Source of the DNA: Cladosporium halotolerans
Taxonomy: Eukaryota
Assembly: GCF_011745625.1 (NCBI RefSeq)
Contig: NW_027191485.1
Location: forward strand, 186,001-250,000
Direction: 5' to 3'
DNA: 64,000 nt
Shown here: in pieces, positions 10,954-25,643 of the stretch
Layout of the letters: every line of letters begins with the position of its first letter
Position numbering within the stretch: position 1 is the first letter of the stretch
Notes under the pieces: model-generated
The model's database searches: none
Told to the model about the DNA's origin: nothing
Seen by the model: the letters and a program-made list of their open reading frames with translations, nothing else
Position numbers and translations under genes: made by a program

Positions 10954-11766
10954 GGATGATGAGTGAGTATTGTGGAGGTGAATCACTTGGTGGGATGGAG
11001 AGGGAGGGGAGGAACGAGAATGATTGCACGAATGGACGACAGCGGGTCATGCGCTGGTCGCAGGCCGCCTTGTTTTGCTTTCTGGATAGAACGCTAGATA
11101 CCCTGTTCTGTTATTAGAAAGATCAGATCGACTTGTTTCCCAGATGGTCTATCGATGTATCATTTGCTCAAGTTCTGCTCCTGCTGACAGAGCCGTTGTC
11201 ATTGCGAAATCAATAAAGTCATCATTCAAACCCTCGCGTCTCAGGCTCTTGGGCAAAATGAAACAGAGCGAGGCGCTACCCTCTCTCCTGGAATACTTCA
11301 ACCCAGTCTTTCCAGAGAGCGCCCCGCAAGCCAAAGTGTCGGATGCTGGGGGCACATAGAAACACAAGCTCGGACCACAAAAGGCTGAGGGACGCGCAAG
11401 AAGAATAGAAGAATTGAATCCTATTTCATTCCCTACCATCGCATCCTCCCGATCTATCCACAACCCATCGTCGCCATGCAATCGAGAAGAAAAAGAAAAG
11501 AATTAAGCAAACCAGTGCGATCCCAGATGTACGTTATCGTCTAAACCGAACACAAGAGCGCCGAGAATCCACCATCTCGGCTTCGTGTCTCCAAAGGGTA
11601 TCCTCCCATTTCCTATTCATCATCCGCCCCCGAACATATGTAGTAAAGGGTCATGTCATGAACATTTTTTGTGCCGCCGCCGCGCTGTCCGTCCCTACCT
11701 ATGCTTTCTGCAAGCCACTTTCTGTGAAGGCTTTTTTTGTTTTCCTCGGCGCGGGAAAGAGGCCGT

Positions 11767-14700
11767 TTAGACCTTGCCCTCGTCGTCGTCGTCCTCGAAG
11801 AAGCTGATGATGCCGCGCACGCCGCTGGGCCCGAGGCCGTGGGGTGGGTAGCAGACTATCGATGTGCGTCAGTATTCTGGCTTGGTGGTGGTGACGGAGG
11901 GAGAGATGCAAAAACTTACCATACACCGGATCCGGCTGCGCGCCCAGCTTCTCTCTGAACTCGCTCTTGTTGATGAGGTGCAAGTCGTTGGCGATGGCGT
12001 GGTAGGCCTTGCTGAGGACCTTGACGCGCGTGCCCTTGAGGTTGTGACCGGGCGTGAAGCTGCTGGAGGCGCCGCTGCCGAAGGTGACGCTCGTCGCGCC
12101 AGCGACGCCGACAGCCTTGAGCGCGTGGATGATGGTCGCCTCGATGGCGCCGGAGGGCGCGCCGGGGAAGTCGAGCGCGAACTTGACCTGCCAGCCGTGC
12201 TCGGGCGCCAGCTGCGCCATGATGACGAAGCAGGCGACGTCGCCCTCCTTCGTTACGGCGTAGTGGTACTGCCTGTGCTCCATGTCCTGCCAGGGGTGCA
12301 CGTCTGTCAGGTGCACCTGCTTGCCCTTGGTCTTGCGGCTGTCGAGCCAGTCCTGGATGCGCTTGTCGACCTTCTGCTTAAGGTCGTCGGGGAAGGTCGC
12401 GCCGATCGCGATGTCGTGGATCTTGATGCCCTCCTTCTCTGCGTGGCGGACCTTGCGCTGCACCTCGGGGTCCTTGGCGCCCTTGATGTCGTTGGGGTCC
12501 ACGCGCTGCTCAGCGGCGACGGAGAACGTGCGCCAGTCGAACCTGGTTGCGAGCACCTCCTGCGTGGCACCACCGCAGAGCAGCCACAGGGGCTTGATCT
12601 TGCGGTCCCTCTTGATGTAACGCAGGTAGGCAGAGACGGTCTTAGTGTACTGGGTCTCGTGACAAAGAGGGTCACCAATGGTCATAGCGAAGCCTTCGTG
12701 CTGCACGAAACCAACAGCCGCACCAGTCTGAGGATCCCGCCAGTGCTCGAACTTCGGCTCGAGCCACGAAGTGTTGGACGCATCGCCGTAGTTGGCAATA
12801 AGCTTCTCGATCGGCTGAAGGGCAATGCCCGCAAGAGCACGGTCCTTGCCAGACCAGGGCGGGTGGAGGGTGCTGGCGTCGGGGTGTCTGAGCTGAGCGA
12901 TAGGCTTCTTCTCCGGAAGAGAGCGAGGGTCTCTGGCGAACATGGTGGCGTGTCTGATGTCACCGAGCTTCAGCATCAACATGAGAATACGCTCCATGCC
13001 GATACCTCCACCGCCGTGCGGCGGCGCGCCCCACTCGAAGCCCTCCATGTACTCCTCCATGGAGCTGGGGTCCATCTTGAGCTTCTCCATTTTCGCAATG
13101 AGGGTGTCCGCGTCGTGGATACGCTGTCCACCAGACAGAATCTCCTGGCCACGGACGAAAATGTCGAAAGAGTTGGTCACCTTGGGGTTGTAAGGATCTT
13201 CCATAGCGTAGAAAGGACGTGCGGAGGTAGGGAATTTGTCGAGAACGTAGTAGTCGGTACCGAGCTTCTCCTTGATCACCTTACCAAGCTGGATCTCGTC
13301 CCTAGTGCCGAGATCCTCATCCTCGGGCAGAGGGTTGCCGTGGTCGTCTCTCCAGCCAGACTCATTCAGCATGCGAATACCCTCCGCGAAGGGAATGATG
13401 GGAGTCTCCTCAAGCCACACCAGGTCCTCAGAGGGGAAGTGGTGCTTGACAATCTCGACCTCCTCGCGGTAGTTTGTATACACATAACTGAAGATGGCCT
13501 TGAAAGTGCTGTCAAGGAGGCGGAGGACTTCGTGGTAGTGCTCGTCAATAGCCATCTCCAGATCCAAGCCAGTGAACTCGGTCAAGTGACGGTGGGTGTT
13601 GCTGTTTTCGGCGCGGAAGACCGGACCGATCTCAAAGACCTTCTTGAAGTCTGATGCGATGGCCATCTGCTTGCCAAGCTGTGGCGACTGCGCCAGGAAA
13701 GCCGGTCTGTTGAAGTAGTTGACCTTGAAGACGCTGGCGCCGGACTCGGATGCAGAGGCCTGCAGTTTGGGTGTGTGAATCTCTATGAAGCCCTCGCCGT
13801 GCAAGTGAGCACGGAATGCCTGGCAGACGGCAGATTGGATTCTGAAAACGCTCTGGGCTGCGGTTGTGCGCAGGTCAATGATGCGGCCATTCTGCCTGGC
13901 GCGATCAGAGATGACTCTGCGGTTGTCATCCTCGCGCGCGACATCCTGCTTGGAGACTTCTGCCTCGTGGACAGTGAAGGGAAGAGGCTGCACGGGCTTG
14001 CCCTCAACGTGCAGCTCGTGAATGTGGACCTCCACGTTCTTGATGGTGCAGCTCTCGACCTCGCCGGACTTCGCCTTGGGTTCCTGGACAACGCCAACAA
14101 CCTTGACGATAGTCTCGACGTGAAGGTGCTCTGCCCAGTACAGGAAATGTGCGGAGATGCTTCCGTGCTCTTGCAAGATGCCCTGAATGGTAGCAGTCTG
14201 TTGCCTCAGCTCAACGAACATGAGATGAGCACTGAGCTTGCGAATGTTGTGAAGTCTGGCGCGGAAGACGACGACCTGACCTGCCATGTCGGGGCTCAAT
14301 TTGCGAATGTCAATGCGGTGGTCTCCAGGCATGTCGCCGGCGTAGTTGTTGACCGGGAGCACACCATATTTAGATCTTTGCTCGTCCGTCTCCTCAGCGG
14401 CAGCCTTTGCCTCAACTTCTTCCTTGCGCTTCTGCTCGGCGGCCACACGCTCCTCGACCTCCAGCTTGTGCTTCTCACGCTCTGCCTGGCGTTCGTGTTT
14501 CCGCGCTTGGCCGCGGCTGATGGGCTGGCCATCTCTGTTCAGTGGGAGGTCCTCCGTCGAGGAGCGAGAGTCGGAGGAGCTGCCGCGGACTTTCCTCCTC
14601 AGAAGGCCCAATGGGCTGTGGGTGGCGCGAGGACGGTGGTGGTGGTCGACGGAGTTGCGGGGCCTGCTGTCGAGGGAGGCCCGGTGCGTCCTATCGGTGG

Positions 14701-14944
14701 CGGTGGAGCCGCGAGGGTGATCGAGAGACTGGCGGAGCCTGTCGATAGAGCCGCGGGGCGTTGTGGCGCCGCCGGACGAGTTGGTGCCGTTGGTCTTGGA
14801 GGAAAAGCCGGTGGAGGTCTTGCTGACGCCGCCACTGGCATTGCTCTCGGCGTCGCTCTGCTGCGCGCTGTTGCTTCGGTCCTGCGAACGCGAGCGGCTG
14901 TGGCTAGGCTTGAGCGACTCGAAGGCCTTCTTGAGGGACGACAT
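11767..14944 (-). CDS. erdS: Aspartyl-tRNA synthetase fused to a DUF2156 aminoacyl-tRNA transferase domain (ergosteryl-aspartate synthase)
   Basis: OB-fold plus class IIb motifs (FLAQSPQL, GPVFRAENSNTHRHLTEFTGLD, PPHGGGGIGMER), followed by a ~330-aa domain with IGDPLC, DFPGAPSGAIE, VTFG, KSEFREK. Last intron near 11857-11918 gives C-terminus VCYPPHGLGPSGVRGIISFFEDDDDEGKV. Confidence 0.88.
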
Positions 14945-17684
14945 GGCGAATGTGGTGTGGTGCGGGTTCGCGCAGCCAAGCTTCAAGGACAAGCTGGTGC
15001 CGCAGCGGTGGGATGAGGAGGGTATGTAAGAGGAAGGCGGCGGGGAAAGGCGTGGTCAAGGCCGGCGACAGTCGGGCCAGGGTGCACGGCGAAGATCCGA
15101 ACCGACGTCAGGTGTGGCTCGCCGGCGATGAGCAAGCAACGAGGGCGATTAGGAGGTGCAGCCGGACTCTGCGGGCGTCTTATGTCACCGGGCGAGGAGG
15201 AGCTGGTGGGCGAGGGCGCGGTGGCAGCGGCCAATGGGAAGCAGCAGGAAGGCGGGCGCGCACGGGCGGGCGTGGATGGGAGCGATGAGGGTGGGCTCGG
15301 ATGCCGATGCTAGACGGACCGGACGCTGCTGGGCTCTGCGAAAAGAGGGCCGCTGAGGACTGCTAACGCTGCCGACGCTGGTTTATCACAATTCCATGTC
15401 GCAGGCTATCTGTAGGTAGGTATGCTGCTGCACGGACATGCACGACAACACAAGACAACATGTTGTGCCCGCGGAGCGTCATCGCAGCGCGTGTTTCCTG
15501 CTGCCGCTCGCTTGCTGCCCGCCCACAACCTGCGTGTCCAAGATAGCGCAGCCCAAGACACCACACACGCACACAAGCTCTGCCTGCCCGCAGAAGCCAA
15601 GTCCTCGCGTCTGTCGCTCGCCTGTCCTCCCAGACTCCACTCTTCAATCCGCCTGCATCTGCCTGCTTCTCCTGATCTCGCGTCACCCAAACGTCAGAAT
15701 GCCATGGGCCATCCTTCTCGCGACCTTAGACCGACCACTACCGCCGACGGTGCCATCGCCCGTCGCCGTCACCACCTGCATGTCCTACACCCTCTGTTGA
15801 TCACGAGAGTGGTGAATTCTCGTTGCGGATTTTGCTCACTCACGCCACCCGGATGCATAATCAACATTCTCTGCTCTGCCGGCAGCCTGCAGACTCCGGC
15901 TTCCGAGCAGCCGGGCTTCTCTCCATGCCCGCGAACCAACCAAGCTTCCCCCTGTCCCGATACCTCTCGTCGAAACAAGCAGCGTGACCATTATAACCTC
16001 TCTCGGCGCTAAGTAAGCACGCCGGTGAACCCGCAGCAAGCGGAGCGACGGCTCCTGCAGAACCGCGCCCTTTGCTGGGTCCCCCAGCCCTGAATATTAT
16101 AGTATTGGAGGCTAGACGTGGTCGCGCCCACAGGGCTGGCGTGGGCTGGCTGCTAGCGAAGCCAAGTGACGCGGGCGTGCATCGCAGATCCGCCCTACTG
16201 TTCATTTCGTGACAACGCCAGACCTCGATGCTCGTGTTCTTCGAGAGAACCCCGTCGGCAACGGCGGGTTCGGCAGTGGTCTTTGTGGGCGTCGGCGACC
16301 GAACGACTCGCGAGACATACTTAGGACCCTCGATTCTACACAATCATCGATGGTGTGGAAGCCATGCAGCCATGTTGCCGTGATCGCGTCTTTGTCTGAG
16401 CTTCTTTTCGTCATATTGCTCGGCTCATGAATTGTTACACCATGGGGGTCGATTTAAGTAAAGCGATCTGCGACACATGACGTACGAATTTGTCTCGCTA
16501 CTTGCTTTCCGCCACGACAGTTCAAGAGTTGTGGCGTCACGTTGAGACAGAAAGCAAGCTGTCAAGCCACATGCTTGTTTTCGACGGCCTGATCTTCACA
16601 GCATGGATGAAGTGGAGCGCACAAATACATAGACGAGGCTTGGAGCCGACTTGGTAGCTCTTCCCGGCTCACTCCCTGAGCACCCGTTAGTCTAAGCATT
16701 TCTAACGGAGGGGTTGCAGCTTCACGTGAAATATCCTCGAGAGCAGTTGAAGTGTACACCCATAGACCTTGACTCGGCCTATGTCACCTTCTTTTGCAGT
16801 GATGGGATCTAATGTTCACTTCTCCCCAGATGCGGATTGCACTCCGGGACATGTGTATCATCACGTCAAACGAAGGATTTGAACAAATTCGAGGAAGCGT
16901 TGTCGCAGATTGTCAGAGTTCCATTCGACTTGTCAACCCTCATCGTGAGGGATCTCTCCTAGTATGTCTGATCAACCAATCGATAGATGTTTATCCAGAA
17001 ACTTCAAAAGAGTCTACCTGCCTCCAAGTCCCTTCCCCATCTGTGCGTGGTGGTCAAGTCTATGACACGGACTTAAGGGCGTAAAACCCGGCACAAGCTC
17101 CACGCCTGCTGGTCGCGCGCAGAAAAAGGGCTGCGCATTGCACGCAGTGCGGCCGCATTCGCGGTATTGACTCATCGTTGCGGCTCCTTCGCCCTACGAG
17201 GCACGCAAAATCGACCTGTGAGAGGCGAGACTGAGGCAGAGAAGGCTGGTACTGTAGCTTGGCGGGCGTCAGTCTGGCCCCTCGTTTGGTCGCGCTTCGA
17301 GGGCTTACGAAAGAGGTCACCGCCGACGCACCTTCAGCTGAACGCTGCCCTACCTTGCCTTACTGCCTGGTCGCACAATCTTCACATACACGCGCCGTGA
17401 CCGCTGAACTTCTTGCGCCCGTGTACGCTCGACACCAGACACTGCACTTCCACATCCAGCCCGCCCAAGCGATCATTTCACACTGCATCATTGCAGGCGG
17501 TCGACGTAAACCAACCCACGGAAACACCCGCTGAGACAGTCCGCATTGCGATTGCGCCGACACTGCAGAGAAAGATAGGTCGTGAGCGCTTTGGTGCGCA
17601 TCATAGCCATCGTGTCGGAAGATCTCTCTTGCTGTGCATACAGCAACGCACGCCCTGCCTGACCAACTCCATCCTCTGTCCACC

Positions 17685-20531
17685 ATGCCGGCAAACCAGC
17701 CAACACCGCCTTCCTCCACATCCTCAAACGGCGCATCGCCCGACAACCAACAGTTCCGCGTAGTGCGGAAACGCAATCGCATACCGCTCTCATGCGGACC
17801 ATGCAGACACCGCAAGCTGAAATGCAACCGCGGCCACCCTTGCGACAACTGCACGAAGCGCGGCGATACCGCTTCATGTAGCTATGCGTCGCCGAAGAAC
17901 AAAAAGCAGGGCTCCGGCGGCGGCGCCAACCAGACGCCGGATGACATGCAGAACCGCATTGACCGCCTCGAGGGATTGGTGCTTTCGCTCATGACGAATG
18001 GAGGGCCGGCTGATGGCGCAGCAGCTGCGCGTGCGGCAATCAATTCGAGCAGAAGCAATAGCCTTAGCACGGCCTCGGATTTGAAGCTTGACGTAGAGGG
18101 CAGTGATATGATACAAGAAGAGAACGAGAACGGAGAAGAGGACAGCGAGGTGGAGCAGGTCTCCAAAGGCATTGGCATTATGAAGGTGGACAACGGCAAG
18201 GCCATATTTGCCTCCGACGCGCACTGGTATGCCATCATGGCGGAGATCGGCGAGGTGAAGAGATATTTTGAGAGTCACAAGGACGATTACACAAGGCATC
18301 TTGCCAAAGTTCAAGCGATACGGGCGAGCGATAATCCTAGCACCGCTTTCCTGCTTTCAGGGCCGCCCGCGAAGGACAAGGACGAACTTCTGGCAGCCTT
18401 CCCGTCAAAAGCGGACAGCGATCGGTTGATCGCGCGATATTTCAACGCATACGACCCTTCAGTGCACATCATCCACGGGCCTTCATTCCAGAAGCAGTAC
18501 GATGCGCATTGGATGAATCCTAGTGCAACTTCTCCGGTTTGGCTGGGCTTGTGCTACGCGATGATGACGCTGGCCCTTCAATCATATCACCGAGCAGGCG
18601 ACGAGCCGCCCGAATATCGCGGGAGAGCCCTCGAGATATCACATGAGCATAGGCTTCTGACTGCGCAATGTATTTTGTTGGCCGACATCACGCAACCTAT
18701 CGCACAGCTGCTGGAAACTATCGTCTTGCATGTGCAAGCAGAATATGGGCGTAGCAGGGACGCAGAGTCCAGCGTCCTACTCTTGACTAGCATCTGCGTA
18801 CGTCTAGCGATGCGTATGGGCTACCACCGCGATCCTGCACCCCATGCCAGCATCACACCTTTCATGGGCGAAATGCGCCGAAGAGTGTGGACTTTCATCC
18901 GACAGCTGGACCTCTTGATTTCCTTCCAATTCGGCATGCCTTCAATGGTACGATCCGACCACATCGATACTCAACCGCCTCGCAACCTCTACGATGACGA
19001 GCTTAACGAGGACACGAAAGTGCTACCGCCGTCGAGGCCCTCGTTCGAAGCTACTCCCATGACTTATATGATCGCGAAGTCGAGGATCACATTCACTTTT
19101 GGCCAAATCGTTGAGAGGACACAGTCATTGACAAACCCGCCTTCTTACGAAGAGACGATGAGTTTCGATCAGCAGCTTCGCGATATCCGCGCAAGCCATC
19201 CGCCGCTATTGCAAATGCGTCCCTTCCAAGAATCTGCCCGCGACCCTGCAAATCTCATCATGCAACGCATAGGACTCGAGCTGGTCTACTTGCGCTCCCT
19301 TTTCGTTTTGCACAGACGGTTCATCGCCAGGGGCAGAGACAACCCTCGATACGCGTATTCCCGTCGAACTTGTATCGACGCCTCACTGGAAATGCTCGCC
19401 CACCAAGCAACACTACACGAAGAGGCCCAACCCGGCGGCCGCCTCCGCAGCGTAAAATGGTACATCTCCTCCCTCACAACCCACGACTTCCTCCTCGCCG
19501 CCGCAAACGTCTGCATGGACCTCTTCCACGGCTGCGAGGCCGAGCGCCGCAACAAATCCGCCTCCGGCCCCTCATCCCCAACCTCCCCCGCCGACGGCCA
19601 CGCCGAGGACCGCCGCGCGAACATGATGGCCGCCGTCGAGCGCTGCATCGCCATCTGGGAGAGCGTGCGCGAGGACAGCATGGAGGCCTACAAGGCCTCC
19701 GTCGCCCTCCGCGTCATGGTCGACAAGCTCAAGGCCCACCAGGCCGTCATGCAGCAGCGCCAGCAGCACCAGCAGGTCCAGGTCCAGGCGCAGCAGCAAC
19801 AACAGCAGCCCGCCTCCGCCACGAATCCCTCGCTGCAGCAGCGCTTCCCCTCCCAGCAGCCCCAGACCCCCTACGCCATGTTTCCCCCGAACGCCGCCAT
19901 GACCTCTTTCGGCAAGGCAGACGACGACCTCCCGCCCGAGCAGAGCGCCGCCATGACCCTAGGCATGCTCTCCAGCGGCGGCCTGTCGCCCAATTTCGGC
20001 TTGGGCGGCGCCGGCGCCGGCGCCGCTGCTCCCACGACCCAGCCTATGGACGGCAAAGGCGGCTTCCCGGCTAGCATGGCGGGCCTGCTCAACGAGCCGA
20101 TGCAGGGCGAGCGCTCGGGGCTGACGCCGCAGTTCTCGGGGCCGGAGATGGGCGGCATGGGGCTCAGTGGCGCGGGCAGTCCGTTCAGTCAGATGTTTGG
20201 CGGTGGGGGCATGGGTGGGATGGAGGGGATGGGGGCGGATATCGATTGGGTATGTTGTTTTCATCCCTTGGACTACGTGGATTGGGAAGTGAAGTGATGC
20301 TGACGACTGTTTACTTTCTTCCAGGGCGCGTGGGACTCCTACATCCAGGGCACGGGCGCCAACAGCATGGATCCCAATTTGTCGATCTGGCCGATGAACC
20401 TCGATCTTTCGCAGATGGATCAGATTCCTCAGCAGCAGCAGCAACAGGCGCAAGGACAGGGGCAAGGGCAGAGCGGTTCTGGCGCTGGGGTGTTTATGGG
20501 TTCTAGCGGCGATGCGCCGAATATGATGTGA
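17685..20531 (+). CDS. Zn(II)2Cys6 transcription factor with fungal-specific TF domain, 2 exons
   Basis: SCGPCRHRKLKCNRGHPCDNCTKRGDTASCSY; middle homology region with EMRRRVW; Q-rich C-terminus. Intron at about 20250-20324. Confidence 0.9.
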
Positions 20532-21457
20532 TTTGGGTGTTTGTAGTATTGAGGGATCTGGTATGATTGTCACGAGTAATGATTTGGCGTTCGTTTGAGT
20601 AGGGCGTTGCGAGAAAGGGTGCTTGCACATGTCCGCTCGCAATGGATTTGTGCATGGATGGGAAACGGGGCACCGATTCTACTCATTTGCTGTTCGATAG
20701 TTTTGGATGTATCATACTATCTTTTCGTGTGTGTAAATGTTATGCAGTGCTCGGCTCAATCGTTGTGCAAGTCACTAGTTATTGACGTTTCGCCAATGAG
20801 ACGTGCCTCGCTGGCTCGCTGGTCTCTAGCCTTTCCTGGTTGCTCGTCACATTGTTCATCGATCAATGAGCGTCTTTGAATACGTCCTCTCTCAAGGGCG
20901 GACCTGCACAATTCGAGACGAGTGCGGCTGGTATGAGCTCACGGGTTATGATCGGAACAGTGAGACTACTATACTCCCATCATTGTTTGTTCGTGCTCAA
21001 TTGCAGGCGCGCATGTGAACGATAACCATGTTTGTCCAGCCAGCTATGCTCTCATCGATGCCAACGCGTGCTATCGTAAGCTGGAGGTCACATATTTCGT
21101 TCTGGAATGGTAGATATGAGGTGGGACTGAATCTCATCTCGCAGCTAACATTGATGGGCGTGGTTGAAAATGTGTCGGTACTTTGGGTCATGGCTCGCCG
21201 TCGGTGCGCACTTCTCAGCACGGCTGCTCCCGACGCCCGCTGTTCGGCGCGTTCAGACGTAAGTGAAGTCCGATATCGGTTCCTTCGCAAGGAAAAATGC
21301 AACGGCTGTGCTTACGATACCAGTAATCGATCAGGCGTTGAAAGCGACTCGAATATGGTCGGGAAAACGGTGAAAAAAATGTAAGGGACATCACTTTCGG
21401 CTACACCTCGCCCTGGGGCTGATACGCACTCGGACAACGACATGAGATGATTTGACC

Positions 21458-21467
21458 AAAACAAAAA
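21458..21467 (-). terminator. Pol III oligo-T terminator of the tRNA-Ser gene
   Basis: Minus strand TTTTTGTTTT just downstream of the discriminator base. Confidence 0.7.
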
Positions 21468-21474
21468 GATTTTT

Positions 21475-21610
21475 CGACACCTGTGTGATTCGAACACACG
21501 CTCCCGAAGGAATTGCCTTAGCAGGGCAACGCGTTAACCACTCCGCTGGGATCGTTGTTAGTGATTGAGTGGAGAAGATGGATACTGGGTGCTTGCTTAC
21601 CCAAAGTGCC
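21475..21610 (-). tRNA. tRNA-Ser(GCU) interrupted by a 55-nt spliceosomal-type intron (21546-21600) between tRNA positions 10 and 11
   Basis: Joined sequence GGCACTT TG GCG GAGTGGTTAA CGC G TTGCC CTGCTAA GGCAA TTCCTTCGGGAG C GTGTG TTCGAAT CACAC AGGTGTC G folds as a full cloverleaf with long variable arm and G discriminator. T5 run 8 nt downstream. Confidence 0.9.
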
Positions 21611-21645
21611 ATGTGTTATTGTTACACTGCTTGCCACTCAATAAC

Positions 21646-21652
21646 ATATATA
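21646..21652 (-). promoter_or_regulatory. TATA-like element upstream of the tRNA-Ser gene
   Basis: TATATAT 36-42 nt upstream of the mature tRNA 5' end. Confidence 0.4.
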
Positions 21653-22922
21653 GTTTTACAAAAAACGGTGAGTCTGCCCTCGTTACCAGCATTCGTGATA
21701 CCAGAGAATATCGCCGAAACATAATGGTCTGCCTATGACAATATTGAGTCAGGATCGAATTTCCAGGTCTGAAATTCGTGGTGTGGCTCGGGCTCGGCGA
21801 CCGAGCTCTTCGTTTGCCCTCAGTCCTCTCCACCTTCGACCGTCTGGGATGGGATAACGCTTGAATGAGCTATACATATGCTATATTACATGAAGCTCAC
21901 ACGATATTATTCCAAGAACTTGCCATTGGGAACGGCATTGCTGACGATGTTACCTTCTGGCAGGCCGACGTCCAACTCTCTGAGCAGGGTGTTCCAAGCG
22001 CTATTGGAGAATCACACAGGAGGAGAGAATCAGAGCTGGGGACGGCATGGGCCTCTTCAGATACGCTCATTGTCAGTACCTTCAGGGTGTCTCGAATTTG
22101 AACGGTTGTTTCGCTAGTATAGTCTCCGTCCGTCACAGTTGATACTCGAGACCATTGAGATCGGAACGATTGGTATCGAATATCTATCACTTGCTTTCGA
22201 TGCCCTCAGGTCTGAAGCTATCACAACTCGCCTCATGTGACAGCGGAGTCAATCGTCACGAGGGGAAATCACGTTCTTGTGCCCAATGTTCTTGGATTGA
22301 ATCAAGCTTAGCGAGAGTGGCGACGGGTATGTATAGTTGAGCCATGGCGTTCTTGGACTTGTCGTAGCTATCGTACGTGAAGTCCCATGTCAACGCAACG
22401 AGAGCGTCAACACACAAAGATTGCTGTGAGATCCAACTTGAAGTCGCCATATGCATGCTGTCAAGATCCGTCGAGATACATTGCATAGTTTTTCAGACAA
22501 TCCGAGAAGCTCCGTAAGAGGCTATCACCACTTCTTTGCCTCCTTTTGATCACACATGGATGAGTGCTGTGTTGCCTGCGAGCTTGGAAGTAACCCCAAC
22601 CCCAACCCTAACGCGTGCCATAGCCCCAACCCTAACCCGAAGATGGTATTTGAGGATTGACACTCCACGACCTGAATATATCTGCATTGAACAGGTAGAG
22701 CAAGAACAAGAGAATTAACGACATACATCCACCTCCAGAGTGTCCCACATTTTCCAGCTGTTAATGATGCGACGAGATCACAACCTCCCCAGACGTCACG
22801 GGATTTCGCGTCGCGCTTTACGCTAAAGCCAAAGTGGACCCTTCTTTTCCCAGTTCATGACGATTGCGCAGGCAGCGACCGCAGCGATACCATAGATCCG
22901 ATCATCGTCAACACACAATGCA

Positions 22923-25643
22923 ATGTTCCGCAAGCCGCGCGATGCTCTGAAGCAGCCAGATGTAGGCCGCCCACCGTCTCCCACCAACGGACCCGCGAAG
23001 ACGCCTTTCACGCTAGCCGTCCCACCTTCCGTTCCGCCACCCTCGAAACCTCTGGCTATGGCGCCCACGAAGACGAATACGAGCAGACAGACTCCGAGTA
23101 CTGTCAGACAGAGCTCTTCCGGGAGCTCCAAGAAGACTGCTGGGGCGTCGAAGATCAAGGCGAAGCCGAACGGGAATATCCTGAGTTTCTTCAAGAAGGA
23201 AGAGACGGGGTTGTTCGTCGCGGAGGACGGGGCGCCTGTTTCTACGGCTTCGCCTTACTTCGAGAATGGGACGAACGGAGTGGATTACGGTGACAGATTC
23301 AATGAGACCGAATCGCCGTCAAAGAGAAGACGATTAAGCGTCGATGAGAACGAGACAAATGAAGCAGAGGGCGAGAGTGCGAGCCTTTTCGGTGAAGACG
23401 AGCCTGCAAAACCGGTCTCGGCTCCTGCTCCGGCCAAGTCTGGCCCTTTCATGGAGGACTCAGACAGTGAGGACGACGAAGAGGAGCACCCCGAAGCGGT
23501 GATTGGATTTGACGAAGGTCCGAGCCATACTTCCGTGACGACTCTCGCAGCACCGGAAGCTTGCGATGCAGCTGAGGATATCTCCACGCACGGCAAGGGG
23601 ACCGATGTGGTTCTGGAAGCTGCACCCAAAGATGAGCCACCGAGCTTCATCAAAGAGGAAACAAGCTATGGACCGGGTCTGGAAGAATTTCAGGATTTCG
23701 AGGGAGTCGAAGGGGACTTCGATGAGGATATCAATGAGGAGGGCGACGAGACATTCGAGAGGAGGTACATGGAGGAGCAGGCAAGACTGGAAGCTGAGGC
23801 AAATGCGGAGGAATACGACTCATTACCACCTGGAGAGAATATCATCAAGGCAGAATCTGGTAGTACTTCGAATGGCACAGAGAGCGCGAGTCCAACCTGC
23901 CCTATTTGCAGCGCGAGCCTCGCAGGCGTCAGTGAGCAGGATGCAGGCATCCATGTCAACAATTGCTTGGACGGCAACCCCACACCTTTACCACCACCCA
24001 AGAAGCCACTGCTTCCGCAGACTGAGGTGAAGCCGGAGAGATGCGCCTCGCCAGCACAGTACAAGCGGCCTGTTCGACCACCCAAGCCTGGCCAGCAGAA
24101 CCCGTTTCTGTTAGGTGAACAGAAGCCTAGTGGCGGGTCGGCTTTCAGCAAGCTTATGTCTGGTCACGCCGAAGACGCAGCATGGGCGGAGGCAGCGGCT
24201 TCGGAAAATGCGGCGAGAGGCAAGCCAGCGTATCAACGGACTTGTCCTTTCTACAAGATCTTGCCTGGTCTCTTCATTTGCGTAGACGCCTTCAGGTACG
24301 GCGCTGTAGAGGGATGCCAGGCTTACTTTCTCAGCCATTTTCACAGCGACCACTACATTGGCTTGACCAGCACGTGGACTCACGGTCCCATCTACTGTTC
24401 ACGTGTCACGGCCAATCTCGTTCGCCAGCAGCTGCGCGTTGATCCACAGTATGTGATCGGCCTTGATTTCGAACTGGATGTGCCTGTGCCGAACACAAAA
24501 GGCGTCAAGGTCACCATGATCTCAGCAAATCACTGCCCAGGCTCGTCGCTCTTCCTCTTCGAAAAGGTTGTCGGCAAGAAAACAAACGGCGAGCCACGCC
24601 TCCAGCGCATTCTCCACTGTGGTGACTTCCGAGCGTGCCGAGCACACATTGAGCATCCTCTCCTCATGCCCAATGTGCAGGACAAGGTCAATGGGAAGAC
24701 CAAGGAACAGAAGATCGATGTGTGCTATCTGGACACCACCTACCTCAATCCCAAATACGCCTTCCCACCGCAGACTTCTGTCATCCAAGCCTGCGCAGAC
24801 ATGTGCGTCAGCCTCTCAAAAGTCTCCCCAGACGAAGACGACGGCTGGGAGCAAATGAAGCGCCAACGCGCCGGCGAAGGCATGACCAAATTTATTCAAC
24901 GCGAAAACTCGATCAAAGAAGAGCCTCCCGAAGATGGCACCGAGGACCACATGAAAGTCGAGCGCAACCCCAAAGCCAGCCAACAAATCATCTCCTCGGC
25001 CAAAGACCAGAAGACTCGCGGCCGCCTGCTCGTGGTCGTCGGCACCTACAGCATCGGCAAGGAGCGCATCTGTCTCGGCATCGCGAAGGCCCTCGGCAGC
25101 AAGATCTTCGCGCCCACCAGCAAGCGCCGCATTGTTGCTGCGCTGGAGGACCCAGAGCTCGACGCCCTTATGACAGACGACCCGCGCGCCGCGCAGGTTC
25201 ACATGACGCCGCTCTTTGAGATCCGCGCGGACACCCTCGACGACTACCTCAAGGACTACTTTCCGCACTTCACCCGTGCCGTCGGTTTCCGGCCCAGCGG
25301 CTGGAACTACCGCCCGCCGAACTCGCGCTTCGTCGAGTCGCCCAGCGTGCAGACGGTGCTGAACTCCGACAACTGGAAGAGCAATTACAGCATGCGGGAG
25401 CTGGTGCCGCAGCGCGGCAGCACGAGCCGCGCGAGCTGTTTCGGAGTGCCGTATTCGGAGCACAGCTCTTTTAGGGAGCTGACGGTTTTTTGCTGTGCGC
25501 TTAGGATCGAGAAGGTCATTCCTACGGTTAATGTTGGGAGTGCGAAGGGCCGGGAGAGGATGAAGGGGTGGTGTGAGAGGTGGGCGCAGGAGAGGAAGAA
25601 GAATGGGGTTTGGCAATTGCCGGAGGGGACAGAATTGCAGTAG
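22923..25643 (+). CDS. PSO2: DNA cross-link repair nuclease SNM1/PSO2 (MBL/beta-CASP) with UBZ-type zinc finger
   Basis: FLSHFHSDHYIGL, ANHCPGS, HCGDFR, LDTTY, VPYSEHSS; CPIC...HVNNCLD finger. Start could instead be Met at 23058. Confidence 0.92.
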   Translation: MFRKPRDALKQPDVGRPPSPTNGPAKTPFTLAVPPSVPPPSKPLAMAPTKTNTSRQTPSTVRQSSSGSSKKTAGASKIKAKPNGNILSFFKKEETGLFVAEDGAPVSTASPYFENGTNGVDYGDRFNETESPSKRRRLSVDENETNEAEGESASLFGEDEPAKPVSAPAPAKSGPFMEDSDSEDDEEEHPEAVIGFDEGPSHTSVTTLAAPEACDAAEDISTHGKGTDVVLEAAPKDEPPSFIKEETSYGPGLEEFQDFEGVEGDFDEDINEEGDETFERRYMEEQARLEAEANAEEYDSLPPGENIIKAESGSTSNGTESASPTCPICSASLAGVSEQDAGIHVNNCLDGNPTPLPPPKKPLLPQTEVKPERCASPAQYKRPVRPPKPGQQNPFLLGEQKPSGGSAFSKLMSGHAEDAAWAEAAASENAARGKPAYQRTCPFYKILPGLFICVDAFRYGAVEGCQAYFLSHFHSDHYIGLTSTWTHGPIYCSRVTANLVRQQLRVDPQYVIGLDFELDVPVPNTKGVKVTMISANHCPGSSLFLFEKVVGKKTNGEPRLQRILHCGDFRACRAHIEHPLLMPNVQDKVNGKTKEQKIDVCYLDTTYLNPKYAFPPQTSVIQACADMCVSLSKVSPDEDDGWEQMKRQRAGEGMTKFIQRENSIKEEPPEDGTEDHMKVERNPKASQQIISSAKDQKTRGRLLVVVGTYSIGKERICLGIAKALGSKIFAPTSKRRIVAALEDPELDALMTDDPRAAQVHMTPLFEIRADTLDDYLKDYFPHFTRAVGFRPSGWNYRPPNSRFVESPSVQTVLNSDNWKSNYSMRELVPQRGSTSRASCFGVPYSEHSSFRELTVFCCALRIEKVIPTVNVGSAKGRERMKGWCERWAQERKKNGVWQLPEGTELQ

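Follow-up and report, generated by a model that had tools for sequence, protein, structure and literature searches.

The 64-kb window analysed here, a stretch of 64,000 nucleotides (nt) from contig NW_027191485.1 of Cladosporium halotolerans, carries on its minus strand a transfer RNA (tRNA) gene for serine, tRNA-Ser(GCU), that is divided between tRNA positions 10 and 11 by an insert with the features of a spliceosomal intron. All coordinates are positions in the window, and the gene is read from high to low numbers (Table 1). The split gene had been proposed in an earlier note on this DNA, and both its coordinates and its sequence are as described there. Joining the two exons (10 + 71 nt) yields an 81-nt class II tRNA-Ser(GCU) that ARAGORN folds cleanly into a regular cloverleaf, with a 7-base-pair (bp) acceptor stem (including two G:U pairs), U8, a 3-bp D-stem, a 5-bp anticodon stem, a long variable arm, a 5-bp T-stem and discriminator G73. 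Among the metagenome matches listed (described below), the 10-mer of exon 1 directly precedes the D-arm in many uninterrupted loci, and the joined exons are identical at 81 of 81 positions to the contiguous genes L005, L016 and L030, which represent two distinct loci, since L016 and L030 share their flanks.

ARAGORN, Rfam and a hairpin search together return one T-arm-like hairpin and one tRNA match in the whole window. Against the Rfam tRNA model the unspliced locus scores 38.9 bits over model positions 9-63 only (gathering score 29), which is about 19 bits below the 58.3 bits obtained, over the full model positions 1-71, by L005 as a proxy for the spliced window tRNA. In the Rfam alignment of the unspliced locus the terminal AG of the insert takes positions 9-10, so that the D-stem does not form exclusively across the exon junction, as the earlier note had held. 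Its expectation that tRNA finders would miss the gene did not hold either: the partial Rfam match lies above threshold, and ARAGORN calls a contiguous 81-nt tRNA-Ser(GCU) in the unspliced DNA, with a C:U acceptor mismatch and a defective D-stem.

Table 1. Features of the interrupted tRNA-Ser(GCU) gene, read along the minus strand
Feature	Window position	Strand	Basis or remark
TATA-like element TATATATG	21645..21652	-	-42 to -35 from the first base of exon 1
Exon 1, 10 nt; tRNA positions 1-10 (5' acceptor strand, U8, G9, G10)	21601..21610	-	Sequence; ARAGORN fold of the joined form
Insert, 55 nt, spliceosomal-type	21546..21600	-	Donor, branch-site-like motif and acceptor
Donor GTAAGC of insert	21600-21595	-	Sequence
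Branch-site-like CACTAAC, 11 nt before the end of the insert	21563-21557	-	Candidate branch A at 21558
Acceptor CAG of insert	21548-21546	-	Sequence
Exon 2, 71 nt; tRNA positions 11-73 (rest of the D-arm onward)	21475..21545	-	ARAGORN; Rfam alignment
Anticodon GCT, in exon 2	21522-21520	-	ARAGORN fold
T-arm/B-box GTTCGAATC	21499-21483	-	Sequence, compared with the box consensus
Discriminator G, end of exon 2 (preceded by the long variable arm and the 3' acceptor strand)	21475	-	Sequence
T5 run, RNA polymerase III terminator-like	21463..21467	-	8 nt past the discriminator; AAAAA and TC between
Contiguous 81-nt ARAGORN model, a false gene model whose 5' end is the last 9 nt of the insert	21474..21554	-	ARAGORN

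The arrangement of exon, insert and exon is certain. To place the insert among the introns of its surroundings, both strands of the window were searched with an intron pattern, which gave 66 matches, 25 of them bridging two open frames that are at least 60 codons long; once length was capped at 100 nt and duplicates were removed, 22 of these were kept as a reference set of introns of the messenger RNA (mRNA) type. They measure 49-94 nt (median about 55 nt), begin with GTRNGY donors (GTAAGT, GTATGT, GTGAGT, GTGAGC and similar) and carry CTRAY 9-20 nt ahead of YAG. The tRNA insert falls in the middle of this distribution, with 55 nt, GTAAGC, CTAAC followed by 11 nt, and CAG, which bears out the observation in the earlier note that it matches the mRNA introns of the window in length, donor, branch site and acceptor. 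From end to end, the pattern is fitted by 24 (strict form) to 32 (loose form) of the 895,258 window segments of 50-56 nt, real introns included, and a chance fit of the insert is excluded. That the insert is an intron of spliceosomal type is, by its sequence, very well supported.

Two other classes of intervening sequence were considered. A self-splicing group I or group II intron is incompatible with an insert of only 55 nt and a minimum free energy (MFE) of 0.0 kcal/mol (z +1.4), and a search of the window against Rfam, at E-values up to 10, gave no match to an intron family. An introner-like element as described in the literature is a poor match within the 64-kb window, where the insert has no second copy, is of regular length and, by the same folding values, lacks a stable fold.

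Related loci were sought by scanning public metagenome contigs with a pattern extending from the D-arm to the anticodon loop, which recovered at least 119 loci. Among the matches listed, to which the counts in this and the following paragraph refer, 109 have the 5' end of the family straight before the D-arm in a complete tRNA, five have the same 5' end with the 3' side cut by the end of the contig, two are cut on the 5' side (L051, whose nine letters fit the contiguous form, and L108, with none visible), and three, L009, L018 and L041, have other sequence before the D-arm. These three of 119 have a GT...AG insert at the 10/11 site, and each has a second one, 51 nt long, in the variable-arm loop. 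In L009 (an 828-nt locus) the 10-nt 5' end of the family is followed by 53 nt, GTAAGC...TCTAAT plus 10 nt ending in CAG, and then by the D-arm; in L018 (also 828 nt) the corresponding insert has 54 nt, GTAGGT...ACTGAC plus 10 nt ending in CAG. The second inserts of both read GTAAGT...CCTAAC or CCTTAC plus 9 nt and end in TAG or CAG. The contig of L041 (432 nt) starts 4 nt before the D-arm, with ACAG, and its second insert resembles those of L009 and L018. Altogether, six inserts are fully visible in the window and these three loci; they measure 51-55 nt and follow the form GTRNGN...CT[AGT]AY, 9-11 nt, YAG, with the donors GTAAGC, GTAGGT, GTAAGT, GTAAGT and GTAAGG in the five outside the window and a branch-site motif that is CTRAY in five of the six and CTTAC in the other. 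Removal of the inserts from L009, L018 and L041 restores 81-nt tRNA-Ser(GCU) sequences. The first inserts have no detectable similarity past their first 7 nt, while the second inserts are related to one another (87% over 30 nt between L018 and L041). The earlier note had suggested looking in relatives for conserved splice signals around a divergent intron interior; at these three loci the 10/11 site and the donor, branch and acceptor signals are kept and the interiors have diverged, as in a conserved intron.

Eight exon positions vary among the four interrupted genes, and these make up four fully compensatory base pairs, one in the anticodon stem and the other three in the T-stem. The pair cells are standard without exception (84 of 84), and unpaired positions do not differ. 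ARAGORN reports no gene in L009, L018, L041 or L031, and Rfam scores them at 37.4, 32.6, 27.3 and 27.0 bits, respectively. The last of these, L031, comes from the same metagenome sample as the other three; it is contiguous at the 10/11 site, and GTAAAT replaces its T-loop after the 5' strand of the T-stem, the contig ending with these last 7 nt of the locus. This may mark a third site of insertion, within the T-arm or B box. The family extends to other gene structures as well. The 3' part of 22 of the 109 complete loci is 87-96 nt long and contains an intron of about 16-26 nt at position 37/38 that begins with AT, so that one tRNA family spans uninterrupted genes, genes with canonical introns and genes with GT-AG inserts. 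Loci such as L006, L022, L026, L036, L054, L064, L069, L110 and L119 have 5' ends such as GTCACTTTGG or GTCGCTTTGG and ordinary 16-26-nt introns at 37/38. On AT-rich, apparently non-fungal contigs (L002, L004, L013, L020, L032, L034, L045, L053, L066, L071, L080 and others) tRNA-Ser(GCU) follows another tRNA gene after about 5-15 nt, in tightly packed pairs. A pattern specific for the intron had no match in prokaryotic and viral contig collections, a result that is uninformative for fungi.

The signals expected of a transcribed tRNA gene can be followed across the same loci. TATA-like hexamers lie upstream of exon 1 at -42 in the window, -48 in L009 and -43 in L018, and CTATAT is invariant in the alignment of the three. 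Among the matches listed there are 30 distinct relatives that are uninterrupted and have a 5' end of the same type; a TATA-like hexamer occurs within 100 nt upstream in 15 of them, and the first such hexamer lies at -53 to -32 in nine. The element keeps its distance to exon 1, not to the body of the tRNA, which suggests a transcription start upstream of exon 1. Around the TATA element, at 21645-21668, about 20 nt are shared with the upstream region of L009 (TTTTTGTA, one variable base, AACTATATAT), the remaining flank sequence being unalignable, and this match could represent a promoter module under conservation or else go back to common descent of the two loci. A CATC[AG] motif at -40 to -8 is present in 18 of 32 uninterrupted relatives (again among the matches listed) and in L009, and is absent from the window and L018; its distribution is mixed and it was left unused. 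Downstream, T4-T5 runs follow all four interrupted genes. Within the inserts, the longest T run in the window is of two, and T4 or longer occurs in none of the six visible inserts.

The internal promoter is affected by the insert in a particular way. Each of the four first inserts has CAG at its end, and the DNA before C11 accordingly reads CAG, as against TGG in uninterrupted genes, and the A-box region AGCGGAGTGG is contiguous in the unspliced DNA because the insert ends in AG. Relative to the A-box consensus, the R9 and G10 positions are kept by the end of the insert. The second inserts of L009, L018 and L041 lie between the A and B boxes. Taken together, the distance of the TATA element, the T runs and the boxes point to RNA polymerase III.

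The explanation that, as a whole, we consider probable is that the host is a working nuclear tRNA-Ser(GCU) gene with a U2-type GT-AG intron, complete with branch site, between positions 10 and 11; that it belongs to a family of such genes in related fungi, with this intron and a second one in the variable loop; and that the spliceosome removes the insert from a polymerase III transcript, which is also the most economical reading of the data. We infer the identity of the polymerase, the spliceosomal excision, the order of processing and the use of the product as follows. RNA polymerase III would start slightly upstream of exon 1, guided by the TATA element, which lies about 40 nt upstream, together with the internal A and B boxes, the A box staying almost whole because the terminal CAG of the intron replaces the TGG of positions 8-10. 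The polymerase would pass through the T-poor intron and terminate at the T5 run. The spliceosome would then excise the 55 nt by way of a lariat, ligating G10 to C11, and RNase P, RNase Z and CCA addition would complete the tRNA. The earlier note had left the choice between maturation through the spliceosome and a recent intron gain. The former is favoured here, and the notion that the gain was recent is argued against by the occupation of the 10/11 site in three other loci, by the compensatory exons and by a TATA element spaced to exon 1. From the comparative pattern, it is well supported that the insert is old and has been kept in working genes.

The gene content of the window gives the context for this proposal. 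Its proteins include, by Pfam, a Zn2Cys6/fungal-specific transcription factor, a HET-domain protein and other products of fungal type, and on these domains we take the host to be a filamentous ascomycete. The tRNA gene sits in a 2.4-kb gap, with a transcription-factor gene on one side and a DRMBL (DNA-repair) gene on the other, and the small open reading frames (ORFs) in this gap have no Pfam match. Elsewhere in the window, on the minus strand at 11699-15055, a long open frame encodes a class II aminoacyl-tRNA synthetase core (tRNA-synt_2, with an OB anticodon-binding domain) and, fused to it at the C-terminus, LPG_synthase_C (DUF2156). This architecture resembles, at the level of Pfam domains, that of the fungal aspartyl-tRNA-dependent ergosterol-aspartate synthase (ErdS).

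Contigs of four sequencing runs were aligned to 19800-23300 of the window. Run X1 gave the best match and is probably the source genome. Its contigs break within the T-arm (21472-21503), where three other long contigs match 30-44 nt with their ends, and a further contig matches 21475-21551 with eight differences and no gap, reaching 6 nt into the 3' end of the insert. These matches indicate that the genome has several tRNA genes with this 3' end; the last of them is possibly a second interrupted paralog. An intron candidate of 75 nt, GTATGT...CTGAC...CAG, lies at 20250-20324 on the plus strand, at the extreme 3' end of the Zn2Cys6 transcription-factor frame. The contig of run X14, taken as RNA by guess only, runs through this candidate with two 1-nt insertions and ends at 21112, short of the tRNA; since it reads straight through the intron, the run behaves as DNA of a relative. 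Run X17 contributed short pieces, none of which reaches the tRNA.

Several observations weigh against spliceosomal removal from a polymerase III transcript. A 5' exon of 10 nt plus a leader, uncapped if it is a polymerase III product, is unfavourable for recognition of the 5' splice site, and work on yeast polymerase III would lead one to expect an A-box-directed start inside the insert. The depletion of T runs in the inserts is not significant (none of six, compared with 5 of 22 mRNA introns). One metagenome sample is the source of all three interrupted relatives. In the genome, the 3' end of the tRNA is shared by at least four other loci, and an uninterrupted tRNA-Ser(GCU) copy may be among the genes of this genome, so that the window copy could go unused. 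The identical mature sequence is found in uninterrupted genes of other fungi, so that conservation of the exons could partly reflect gene conversion rather than selection on the window copy. Finally, X19, the only run on record as RNA, has no contigs on 19800-23300, a result that permits no inference on expression, absence or habitat.

The main rival is a silent or dying copy, in which an intron entered the gene or its ancestor, polymerase III transcripts are not productively spliced, paralogs supply the tRNA and the exons are kept similar by gene conversion. The other loci that share the 3' end, the uninterrupted genes with an identical mature sequence and the lack of RNA evidence in X19 speak for such a copy. 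It does not account well for the preservation of site, splice signals, TATA distance and terminator across four loci in which the intron interiors and flanks have diverged, nor for exon differences that are compensatory at all eight positions. In the one sample concerned, moreover, three of the four tRNA-Ser(GCU) loci among the matches listed are interrupted and the fourth breaks off in the T-arm, and gene conversion would tend to erase introns. On balance we regard a silent copy as unlikely, and the three explanations that follow lie further behind.

A host transcript made by RNA polymerase II would remove the difficulty posed by the short first exon. Transcription would be driven by the TATA box, which at about 40 nt upstream suits this polymerase equally well, the cap would explain splicing despite a very short first exon, the intron would be spliced in the manner of an mRNA intron, and the tRNA would be released by RNase P and RNase Z. 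The T4-T5 runs, however, come right after all four genes, as they do in uninterrupted relatives; TATA-like elements stand at equal distance in those relatives, presumably genes of the ordinary polymerase III kind; both internal boxes, A and B, are intact; and no conserved or coding host transcript is seen, the flanking ORFs being without Pfam match. We therefore consider a polymerase II origin improbable.

Removal without the spliceosome, for example by the tRNA splicing endonuclease and ligase acting on a fold resembling a bulge-helix-bulge, in the way of the ectopic tRNA introns of red algae, nucleomorphs and archaea, has still less to recommend it and appears very improbable. The inserts stand at 10/11, or in the variable loop in the case of the second inserts, instead of at the canonical 37/38 site, and the fungal tRNA endonuclease measures from the mature domain to 37/38, which counts against this route. 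No strict bulge-helix-bulge (3-nt bulges flanking a 4-bp helix) was found at the six inserts, whose best scores, of a possible 8, are 5, 7, 5, 6, 5 and 5. Random window segments, of which 5000 were scored, cannot be told apart from the inserts by these values, and the registers are inconsistent between loci, with the limit that the score is crude, does not separate canonical fungal 37/38 introns from random segments either, and excludes the strict motif only. The junctions do not fall in bulges of the MFE folds, and the features conserved among the loci are exactly the spliceosomal ones. What favours the endonuclease is precedent, in that ectopic and multiple tRNA introns, some in the D-arm, occur in Cyanidioschyzon merolae (PMC3728597, PMC3978253).

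The weakest alternative, that there is no intron and that the contiguous form reported by ARAGORN is real, transcribed from inside the insert and preceded by the 10-mer through coincidence, can draw on six of seven acceptor pairs and on an AG that mimics positions 9-10, and is scarcely credible given its C:U acceptor mismatch, the lack of U8, a defective D-stem, a discriminator A in place of the G of the family, an upstream 10-mer that is the exact 5' end of the family, and the absence of any such form from L009, L018 and L041.

Beyond removal of the window insert by the spliceosome, a wider proposal may be put forward tentatively, as possible though doubtful: that a lineage of filamentous ascomycetes relies on the spliceosome to decode AGY serine codons. 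In such fungi, tRNA-Ser(GCU) genes, all or most of them, would contain between one and three introns of mRNA type (at 10/11, within the variable loop and perhaps also in the T-arm) that are spliced from polymerase III transcripts, and the 10/11 intron would be tolerated through the rebuilding of A-box bases by its CAG. Two splicing systems that textbooks keep apart would then overlap on one substrate, and standard annotation would mis-call or miss tRNA genes in these fungi. An annotation blind spot is already apparent: ARAGORN gives a wrong 5' end for the window gene and nothing for the three two-intron genes, so that tRNA gene counts may be wrong in some fungi.

If spliceosomal removal from the window transcript is true, tRNA would join a short list of non-mRNA hosts of spliceosomal introns, made up of the U-rich small nuclear RNAs (snRNAs) and ribosomal RNA (rRNA), and the locus would provide a second, independent example of spliceosome action on an RNA made by polymerase III, here with a first exon that is extremely short and may be uncapped. 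It would also bear on the origin of new introns, for which reverse splicing into abundant RNAs is the usual idea in the case of U6. The earlier note knew of no described case in a tRNA gene, in agreement with our full-text literature search, which turned up no spliceosomal intron reported for such a gene; most subscription journals lie outside the reach of that search, and an earlier description is possible. A preprint (10.64898/2026.07.09.736142) matched on the phrase 'non-spliceosomal tRNA introns' and is not a precedent, and PMC11146597 has nothing on tRNA genes in the role of intron hosts.

Among known systems, the non-mRNA hosts of spliceosomal introns named in PMC5855946 are snRNA genes and ascomycete rRNA genes. 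The U6 gene of Schizosaccharomyces pombe, a polymerase III gene, has an mRNA-type intron which the spliceosome excises (Tani and Ohshima 1989, via PMC5855946), and other fungal U6 genes have up to four introns (Canzler et al. 2016, via PMC5855946). The window gene resembles fungal U6 in being a small non-coding gene of polymerase III type with short introns, of which there can be several per gene (PMC5855946). It differs in that U6 occupies the spliceosome's active site, which explains the entry of introns by reverse splicing, whereas tRNA is not found there; in that its first exon has 10 nt and its host RNA has a splicing pathway of its own; and in that the splicing which we infer here is established for S. 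pombe U6. The spliceosomal introns of ascomycete rRNA genes (Bhattacharya et al. 2000, cited in PMC5855946) likewise reside in structural RNA genes outside the domain of RNA polymerase II, the host in that case being made by polymerase I.

[quoted passage not shown] Canonical introns of eukaryotic tRNAs are found between positions 37 and 38, a single nucleotide 3' of the anticodon, and depend for their removal on a protein endonuclease together with a ligase, separately from the spliceosome (PMC10275265). The insert shares with them the presence of a short intervening sequence in a nuclear tRNA gene and departs from them in position, in length (51-55 nt, as against about 16-26 nt in related loci) and in the signals at its ends. 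There is a likeness in distribution to the ectopic introns of C. merolae and the non-canonical tRNA introns of archaea, which also lie away from 37/38, can be multiple in one gene and are hidden from standard finders (PMC3728597, PMC3978253, PMC8450103). Unlike those introns, which rely on a bulge-helix-bulge and the tRNA endonuclease (same sources), the inserts described here have a GT donor, CTRAY, YAG and the length of mRNA introns.

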